Assembly: GCF_003334815.1 (NCBI RefSeq)
Contig: NZ_QOWO01000062.1
Reading direction: 5' to 3' (one strand)
DNA: 9,739 nt
Origin: Escherichia coli
Lineage (GTDB): Bacteria; Pseudomonadota; Gammaproteobacteria; Enterobacterales; Enterobacteriaceae
Made by a program: the position numbers and the translations under genes. Within the stretch, counting starts at the first letter, position 1; each line of letters starts with the position of its first letter. Below, piece after piece: positions 1 through 992 of the stretch. The notes beneath the pieces are model-generated. The model saw only the letters and a list, made by a program, of their open reading frames with translations. It was not told where the DNA came from and made no database searches.

Positions 1-77
1 AAATGTTCGTCTCATTCAAAAAACCTCCGCAACCCCATGTTTTCACATAACTGTTGCGTTGACCAATTGAATCTACA
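1..77 (-). mobile_element. IS30 left end, truncated by the window edge: terminal inverted repeat plus the first five codons of the IS30 transposase (ATG at 13..15 on the minus strand, reading MRRTF)
   Basis: Reverse complement of 1..77 reads TGTAGATTCAATTGGTCAACGCAACAGTTATGTGAAAACATGGGG...GAATGAGACGAACATTT, which matches my recollection of the IS30 IRL and transposase N-terminus. Not verified by search. Confidence 0.75.
52..77. repeat. IS30 terminal inverted repeat (IRL), about 26 bp
   Basis: Plus-strand tgttgcgttgaccaattgaatctaca is the reverse complement of the remembered IS30 end TGTAGATTCAATTGGTCAACGCAACA. The exact boundary is from memory. Confidence 0.65.
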
Positions 78-145
78 ACCGCGCTCTTGATGTCAGACTC
101 CCTGAACAGTTCTCGATAATCAGGAAACTCAGAGCGCATTATCCT

Positions 146-984
146 GTGGTCACACTCTGCCATGTGTTCGGGGTTCATCGCAGCAGCTACAGATACTGGA
201 AAAACCGTCCTGAAAAACCAGACGGCAGACGGGCTGTATTACGCAGCCAGGTACTTGAACTGCATGGCATCAGCCACGGCTCTGCCGGAGCAAGAAGCAT
301 CGCCACAATGGCAACCCGGAGAGGCTACCAGATGGGGCACTGGCTTGCTGGCAGACTCATGAAAGAGCTGGGGCTGGTCAGTTGCCAGCAGCCGACTCAC
401 CGGTATAAGCGTGGCGGTCATGAGCACGTTGCTATCCCGAATCATCTTGAGCGACAGTTCGCCGTAACGGAACCAAATCAGGTGTGGTGCGGTGATGTGA
501 CCTATATCTGGACGGGTAAGCGCTGGGCGTACCTCGCCGTTGTTCTCGACCTGTTCGCAAGAAAACCAGTGGGCTGGGCCATGTCGTTCTCGCCGGACAG
601 CAGGCTTACCATGAAAGCACTGGAAATGGCATGGGAAACCCGTGGTAAGCCCGTCGGGGTGATGTTCCAGGCGATCAAGGCAGTCATTATACGAGCAGGC
701 AGTTCCGGCAGTTACTGTGGCGATACCGGATCAGGCAGAGTATGAGTCGGCGTGGAAACTGCTGGGATAACAGCCCAATGGAGCGCTTCTTCAGGAGTCT
801 GAAGAACGAATGGGTGCCAGCGACGGGCTATGTAAGCTTCAGCGATGCAGCTCACGCAATAACGGACTATATCGTTGGATATTACAGCGCACTAAGACCG
901 CACGAATATAATGGTGGGTTACCACCAAACGAATCAGAAAACCGATACTGGAAAAACTCTAACGCGGAGGCCAGTTTTAGTTGA
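146..984 (+). pseudogene. insO: IS3-family (IS911-like) transposase orfB, split by a frameshift into two ORFs (146..745 and 742..984); N-terminus additionally truncated by the IS30 insertion
   Basis: Both ORF translations read as one DDE transposase (…[12 protein letters not shown]… then …[22 protein letters not shown]…). In the frame of the second ORF the upstream sequence 673..741 translates [23 protein letters not shown], which continues the transposase core, so the frame change lies near 665..675. The symbol insO follows K-12 nomenclature from memory. Confidence 0.7.
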
Positions 985-992
985 CCACAACA
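957..992. repeat. Right terminal inverted repeat of the IS911-like element (about 36 bp)
   Basis: About 31 of 36 positions match the remembered IS911 IRL when reverse-complemented. The terminal dinucleotide is CA. Confidence 0.6.

Follow-up and report, generated by a model that had tools for sequence, protein, structure and literature searches.

An IS30 copy nested in a frameshifted IS911-family element beside the ferric-citrate locus of Escherichia coli

The window, which is the whole stretch of 9,739 nucleotides analysed here, covers the ferric-citrate locus of Escherichia coli with fecE, fecD, fecC, fecB, fecA, fecR, and fecI in succession, and its left end lies within a nest of two insertion sequences. 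A complete IS30 that is bordered by a duplicated AC has almost certainly integrated at this place into an IS911-family element whose orfB is frameshifted. A first-pass annotation made from the letters of the window had proposed an IS30 nested in an IS911-like element with a boundary at 77/78. Both the nesting and the boundary are confirmed by sequence and alignment, as positions 1-77 are identical to IS30 copies and positions 78-992 align to the IS911 family. Since the window holds 77 bp of IS30, the completeness of IS30, its left junction, and the target site duplication (TSD) were read from two genomes with a match of about 100% to the window, i.e. from the loci of ATCC 11775 (L001) and ETEC4073 (L013). 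Among the genomes listed, none reached a perfect score over the whole window; the one difference that was located is the C6/C7 tract at 1550-1555, and ETEC4073 equals the window in length. The coordinates of the features are collected in Table 1.

Table 1. Features of the nest and its surroundings; positions refer to the window unless they are preceded by L001.
Feature	Position	Strand	Basis or remark
IS30 IRL end, element nt 1-77	1..77	-	remainder of the 1221 bp lies beyond the left edge of the window
IS30 transposase codons 1-5 (MRRTF), ATG at 15..13	1..15	-	PGAP CDS L001 4864..6015 (-)
IS30 26-bp terminal inverted repeat (IRL), TGTAGATTCAATTGGTCAACGCAACA on the minus strand	52..77		repeat search
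AC, right-hand copy of the IS30 2-bp TSD	78..79		left-hand copy at L001 4855-4856
IS911-family (IS3 family) element, 3' 915 bp	78..992	+	alignments; name in the K-12 annotation IS911B
orfA, detached tail: 13 codons and TAA at 117-119	78..119	+	translation of the uninterrupted O26 copy
orfB to the premature stop TGA 743-745	80..745	+	out of frame after 669; mechanical ORF from GTG 146
1-nt deletion site in orfB, CAC AGC -> CA- GGC	669..670	+	alignments and repair test
orfB remainder, original frame	670..984	+	mechanical ORF 742-984
Right inverted repeat of the IS911-like element, ...GGCCAGTTTTAGTTGACCACAACA	967..992	+	alignments
fecE	1881-2648	-	
IS1F-type element, left end, starts GGTAATGCTGCCAACTTACTGATTTAGTG...	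~9664-9739		cut by the window edge

The outer element belongs to the IS911 family. Its portion in the window can be aligned over the full length to IS911-family elements with one gapped position only and ends in ...GACCACAACA at 992. The nucleotide identity amounts to 95.0% to annotated IS911 and 94.5% to ISEc52 in a mosaic pattern, which makes "IS911-like" the appropriate label. The orthologue is named IS911B in the K-12 annotation, and copies of IS911 in E. coli are annotated as "IS3-like element IS911 family". In the genomes that match the window, the left part of the element is found beyond IS30 and measures 335 bp, which include the left inverted repeat (IRL), orfA, and the A6G slippery heptamer; the reconstituted element is 1248 bp long. 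The left end TGAAGTGGTTTACTG... is identical to the IRL of ISEc52, and the two ends of the element are TG and CA. orfA and the A AAA AAG heptamer are located at L001 4594-4851 with orfB in the -1 frame, an arrangement that corresponds to a programmed frameshift. The element thus resembles the IS911 prototype from Shigella dysenteriae and ISEc52 in its orfA, the A6G -1 site, the DDE residues of orfB, the TG...CA ends, and a length of ~1250 bp. IS911 itself is 1250 bp long and generates a 3-bp TSD (PMC12455656). In contrast to IS911 and ISEc52, the element in the window is split by IS30, its orfB is frameshifted, it has no TSD, and its right inverted repeat deviates from theirs (TTTTTG..CCACTTCA) by three substitutions, with the terminal CA retained. 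Elements of this family duplicate 3 bp, rarely 4 bp, of their target. No 3-bp TSD was found between the left flank (TGG, or CTC when the duplicated TGAAGTGG tip is counted) and the right flank (GAC, 993-995), so that the insertion history of the element at fec is not fully recoverable. Its flanks may be rearranged, which leaves the family membership unaffected.

Two further observations concern the left part of these elements. Outside the window, at L001 4514-4529, the IS911-like element shows a tandem duplication of its left tip TGAAGTGG (TGAAGTGGTGAAGTGGTTTAC). The slippery site contains A5 and not A6 in the IS911 copy of BL21 (annotated with "programmed frameshift"), in the left part of K-12 IS911B, and in the 2015C-3163 copy (L003 626-632 and L005 4447-4453), and with the A5 run, the frame of orfB with respect to that of orfA is +1, not -1. 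Additionally, the left flanking sequence is common to the BL21 copy and the left part of K-12 IS911B.

The gapped position of the alignment lies in orfB. The first-pass annotation described a single orfB that switches frame near 670, just upstream of the DQGSHYTS motif, and the alignment to IS911 and ISEc52 identifies this switch as a 1-nt deletion. Intact IS911 and ISEc52 have TTCCACAGCGATC at this place, in contrast to TTCCA-GGCGATC in the window and TTCCA-AGCGATC in K-12. The lost base is one C in a His codon, which the second catalytic Asp follows two codons later; position 670 is also changed to G, where K-12 and the intact elements have A. The catalytic residues are no longer encoded together: the first D (GAT, 494-496) lies in ORF 146-745, the E (GAG, 781-783) lies in ORF 742-984, and the second D (GAT, 673-675) lies in no ORF of at least 40 aa in its frame. 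No single reading frame now encodes all three. The window segment carries the PGAP label "IS3 family transposase; frameshifted; incomplete", and the boundary between fragments 2 and 3 of K-12 insO maps to the deletion site at 669/670. We infer that what remains of the IS911-like element is a dead relic.

The inner element is preserved to a different degree. Four IS30 copies of 1221 bp, among them IS30D and IS30A of K-12, were aligned, and their last 77 nt agree without exception with the IS30 portion of the window. The full element at L001 4857-6077 has the 1221-bp length of IS30 and 26-bp imperfect inverted repeats that begin with TGTAGATTCAAT. Its two arms of 26 nt (L001 4857-4882 and 6052-6077) are 88% complementary, and the window holds one of them only. 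The copy that adjoins the window differs by 2-4 nt from IS30D and IS30A of K-12, and it lies antisense to the IS911 genes. In both ATCC 11775 and ETEC4073, the transposase CDS (WP_001254876.1) is annotated by PGAP as complete and without a pseudogene flag; in the genomes matching the window, one end of it lies within positions 1..77 of the window. Judged by its sequence, this IS30 copy is intact in its structure and probably still mobile.

The junctions of the nest follow the pattern expected for IS30. The flanks read GGCTAC/IS30/ACCGCG, and the uninterrupted copies (IS911, ISEc52, and those of pZ1322 and 2015C-3163) read GGCTACCGCG. In ATCC 11775 and ETEC4073, the nest has the form ...AAAAAAGGCTAC/IS30/ACCGCGCTC... 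with AC on both sides, so that the 2-bp duplication for which the first-pass annotation had pointed to the other IS30 junction is indeed found. As the merged flanks equal the uninterrupted GGCTACCGCG, the junctions exactly match a canonical IS30 integration, for which a 2-bp target duplication is characteristic (PMC9333248). The insertion point is located 6 nt 3' of the A AAA AAG heptamer, and IS30 severs the last 13 codons of orfA. Because IS30 separates the slippery site from orfB, the OrfAB fusion can no longer be made, even leaving the frameshift aside. A chance resemblance is excluded: near-identical copies of the locus exist in the thousands, and the window is one of them.

The nest probably arose in the following order. 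An IS911-family element settled beside yjhV and fecE, and its orfB lost one C. A complete IS30 then integrated by its canonical 2-bp staggered cut, which duplicated AC. As the first-pass annotation had it, two or more transposition events took place one after the other next to fec. The C deletion is common to the window type, K-12 insO, the O26 11368 copy, and the 2015C-3163 copy, all of which are adjacent to yjhV. The copy of 2015C-3163 has the C deletion without IS30 and without extra bases at the site. As the deletion also occurs in this IS30-free and unscarred copy, it probably preceded the insertion of IS30, an order that rests on one mosaic allele and that could be blurred by the evident recombination among IS911-family copies.

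The nested structure as such is already known from the IS911B/IS30D/insO annotation of K-12 and the PGAP pseudogene label, and an IS911 of K-12 that is interrupted by IS30 has been described (PMC9333248). With a coverage of 80% or more, a 120-nt junction probe is found in 1,017 of the 5,426 complete genomes of E. coli. A literature search on fecE beside IS911 returned mostly off-topic matches and no description of the locus. In KpLE2 of K-12, the annotation lists IS911B, IS30D (insI3), an IS600 fragment, and IS911B-1, with insO (b4623) as a three-piece pseudogene. This locus shares with the window the neighborhood of yjhV, fecEDCBA, fecR, fecI, and IS1F, and it shares with the window type the left junction AAAAAGGCTAC/TGTAGATTCAATCTG, the orientation of IS30, and the 1-nt deletion in orfB. 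It differs in the right flank of IS30D, which is a 327-bp IS600 fragment, and in the right part of IS911, of which only 795 bp are left; the TSD is consequently lost. Furthermore, the left part of K-12 IS911B is a different allele with the A5 run and a GGCACAC-type IRL, and the right part has an IS911-type 5' stretch, unlike the window. The K-12 locus is a rearranged derivative, and the window represents the simpler, clean nest with its TSD. In another strain, MRE162, ACCGCGCTCTTGATGTC borders a frameshifted IS30 next to fec (L008 2220-3520) on either side in inverted arrangement, which points to an inversion or to recombination between two IS911::IS30 nests.

Comparable nests occur at other loci. 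IS911A::IS30A in CP4-6 of K-12 (insN/insI1; PMC9333248 Fig 3) has IS30 at the same dinucleotide and with the same AC duplication as the nest of the window (junctions at L009 2041/2042 and 3262/3263). It differs by the opposite orientation of IS30A relative to IS911, by its locus, and by the 429 bp of the IS911 right part that are retained. In pSFO157 (p493-89-1), a nest between eptO and ehxC is identical to that of the window in its junctions, orientation, and AC duplication. This nest, however, resides on a plasmid and is built on another IS911-family backbone (TGTAGTGG ends, ~91% identical) without the orfB frameshift. A nested composite IS30/IS911 element is mentioned for pSFO157 (PMC7175801), which may or may not be the copy between eptO and ehxC. 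The IS30 target around the duplicated dinucleotide is TTAAAAAAGGCT-AC-CGCGCTCTTGAT. Given the opposite orientation at the same dinucleotide, IS30A of K-12 seems to be an independent insertion. The comparison points to the region directly 3' of the IS911-family frameshift heptamer as a possible recurrent target of IS30, and the occupation of one dinucleotide in both orientations makes it a candidate hot spot of IS30, an element for which a nearly palindromic consensus of insertion hot spots is known.

Copies of the same element without IS30 carry three additional nucleotides at the IS30 site. In O26:H11 11368 (L002 4330-4345), the element adjacent to fec is identical to that of the window with the exception that IS30 is absent and that 3 nt are added, and at least 30 other EHEC chromosomes among the matches listed have the fec-adjacent element in this form. 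The O26:H11 copy was considered as the empty site before insertion and was rejected, as the 3 extra nt lie exactly at the IS30 site. The sequence GGCTAC-A-ACCGCG (GGCTACAACCGCG) is 3 nt longer than the virgin GGCTACCGCG. The same pair of states is present at the plasmid locus between eptO and ehxC, which is occupied by IS30 in pSFO157 (L010 3339/3340 and 4560/4561) and shows the +3-nt form in pO157 (L006 ~2545-2560). A virgin copy of the pO157-type element exists elsewhere, on pZ1322. A pO26-type copy was also tried as the unscarred state of the eptO-ehxC site; it sits at a different locus and is uninformative. By rank sampling, roughly 80-160 chromosomal and 160-320 pO157-type records carry the +3-nt form. 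The three nucleotides preserve both reading frames, and the pO157 copy is annotated by PGAP as an intact IS3 transposase with programmed frameshift.

The +3-nt form can be derived from the occupied site by a single deletion. One CTAC ends the left flank (GGCTAC), and a second CTAC is found inside the IS30 terminus (TCTACA). A simulated deletion between these two repeats yields the O26 sequence base for base, which makes a nearly precise excision of IS30 probable. IS30 would thus have been lost by deletion between the 4-bp CTAC repeats, which would leave GGCTAC-A-ACCGCG. In the classical model, such deletions proceed by slipped mispairing between short repeats that is aided by inverted repeats. 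The transposition of IS30 itself is reported never to regenerate the target, i.e. not to excise precisely (PMC9333248), and a transposase-independent loss would be in line with this report. With moderate confidence, the data point to a recurrent IS30 site at which the nesting may be reversible, as a transposase-independent CTAC deletion would leave an in-frame +3-nt scar in EHEC chromosomes and pO157-type plasmids. Either state could have been spread by gene conversion between IS copies.

Several other readings of the locus have to be weighed against this account. ORFs 146-745 and 742-984 overlap at ATGA (742-745), as noted in the first-pass annotation, and such an overlap is typical of coupled genes, so that the two could be regarded as separate, translationally coupled genes. 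Yet they match consecutive segments of one model, NCBIfam NF033516 (IS3 family transposase, 369 positions): ORF 146-745 covers 105-277 with 171.1 bits (cut-off 160), and ORF 742-984 covers 305-368, the C-terminal end of the model, with 73 bits, which identifies them as two pieces of one gene. One C added after 669 fuses them into one frame that stays open from 80 to the stop codon 982-984 and whose product is collinear with the intact OrfB of the pO157 type, intact relatives possess this extra C, and PGAP and the K-12 annotation both treat the region as a frameshifted pseudogene. A pair of coupled genes has therefore virtually no probability, and the two ORFs are those of one frameshifted transposase, as first proposed. 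The same annotation held that IS30 had removed the 5' end of IS911 and that both elements are inactive relics. The window by itself displays 77 bp of IS30 and no 5' end of IS911, and IS30 is damaged or rearranged at this place in some strains, as shown by the frameshifted copy of MRE162 and the IS600 fragment on the right of K-12 IS30D. In the genomes that match the window, however, IS30 is complete with 1221 bp, AC is present on both sides, and the 335-bp left part of IS911 directly abuts the far side of IS30. IS30 only seems truncated because the window edge cuts it, and since the left part of IS911 is present beyond IS30, a simple insertion took place and not a truncation. The claim of a lost 5' end thus falls; the claim of two relics stands for the IS911-like element and fails for IS30 with its two inverted repeats, its transposase that is annotated as complete, and its AC/AC borders. 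That IS30 deleted the IS911 5' end and that both elements are decayed and immobile is accordingly very improbable.

More weight is due to the reading in which the O26-type GGCTACAACCGCG is not a scar but an ancestral state that preceded the insertion or a natural 3-nt polymorphism. It agrees with the presence of the same 3 nt in the pO157 copy that is annotated as intact, with the preservation of both frames, and with the absence of precise excision that is reported for IS30 transposition (PMC9333248). If IS30 entered GGCTACAACCGCG in the canonical way, however, GGCTAC/IS30/ACCGCG could not result, whereas an insertion into GGCTACCGCG gives exactly this arrangement. The CTAC deletion, on the other hand, reproduces the O26 sequence exactly, and the pair of occupied and +3-nt states is found again at another orthologous locus, in pSFO157 and pO157, respectively. 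No genome with an unscarred copy of the window allele was found, as the best match of the reconstructed empty element reached 99.8%, and this result also speaks against this reading. The natural polymorphism was downgraded after the occupied orthologue of pSFO157 and the simulation of the CTAC deletion, and the reading as a whole is now regarded as rather unlikely, so that an excision scar is the preferred explanation of the three nucleotides.

The surroundings of the nest are those of a leuX/KpLE2-type island, in which the IS911-like element adjoins yjhV and fecE. In ETEC4073, the layout from an AbiJ-like gene through to IS1F is as in the window. The yjhV-like ORF (window 1067-1324) encodes 85 aa (WP_000177060.1) and is a pseudogene in K-12. 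It is in frame with the right-end sequence of the IS911-like element, which results in a mechanical ORF of 137 aa (911-1324), and in some genomes its region is annotated as "NAD(P)-binding domain-containing protein". The yjhV-like ORF is probably a gene remnant that was truncated by the IS. The downstream ORFs 911-1324 and 1080-1343 matched no family in the NCBIfam scans. In the spacer between yjhV and fecE, the poly-C tract at 1550-1555 is C6 in the window and K-12 and C7 in ATCC 11775 and O26 11368. A 488-aa ORF (window 2649-4115, minus strand) arises mechanically by extending fecD upstream and overlaps with fecC; as the annotated fecD comprises 318 aa (957 nt), it is not a real longer gene.

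The IS30/IS911-like nest beside fec is common, already annotated, and ordinary, and the finding is of little importance of its own. With the IS1F-type end on one side and the nest on the other, the fec operon is bracketed by insertion sequences, which agrees with the known assignment of fec to a mobile island. The window presents the unrearranged nest with its TSD intact, and the textbook locus of K-12 is the derived form. The occupied and +3-nt states provide a simple lineage marker, and they may exemplify a natural, nearly precise loss of IS30 that is reportedly not produced by the transposition chemistry of IS30.
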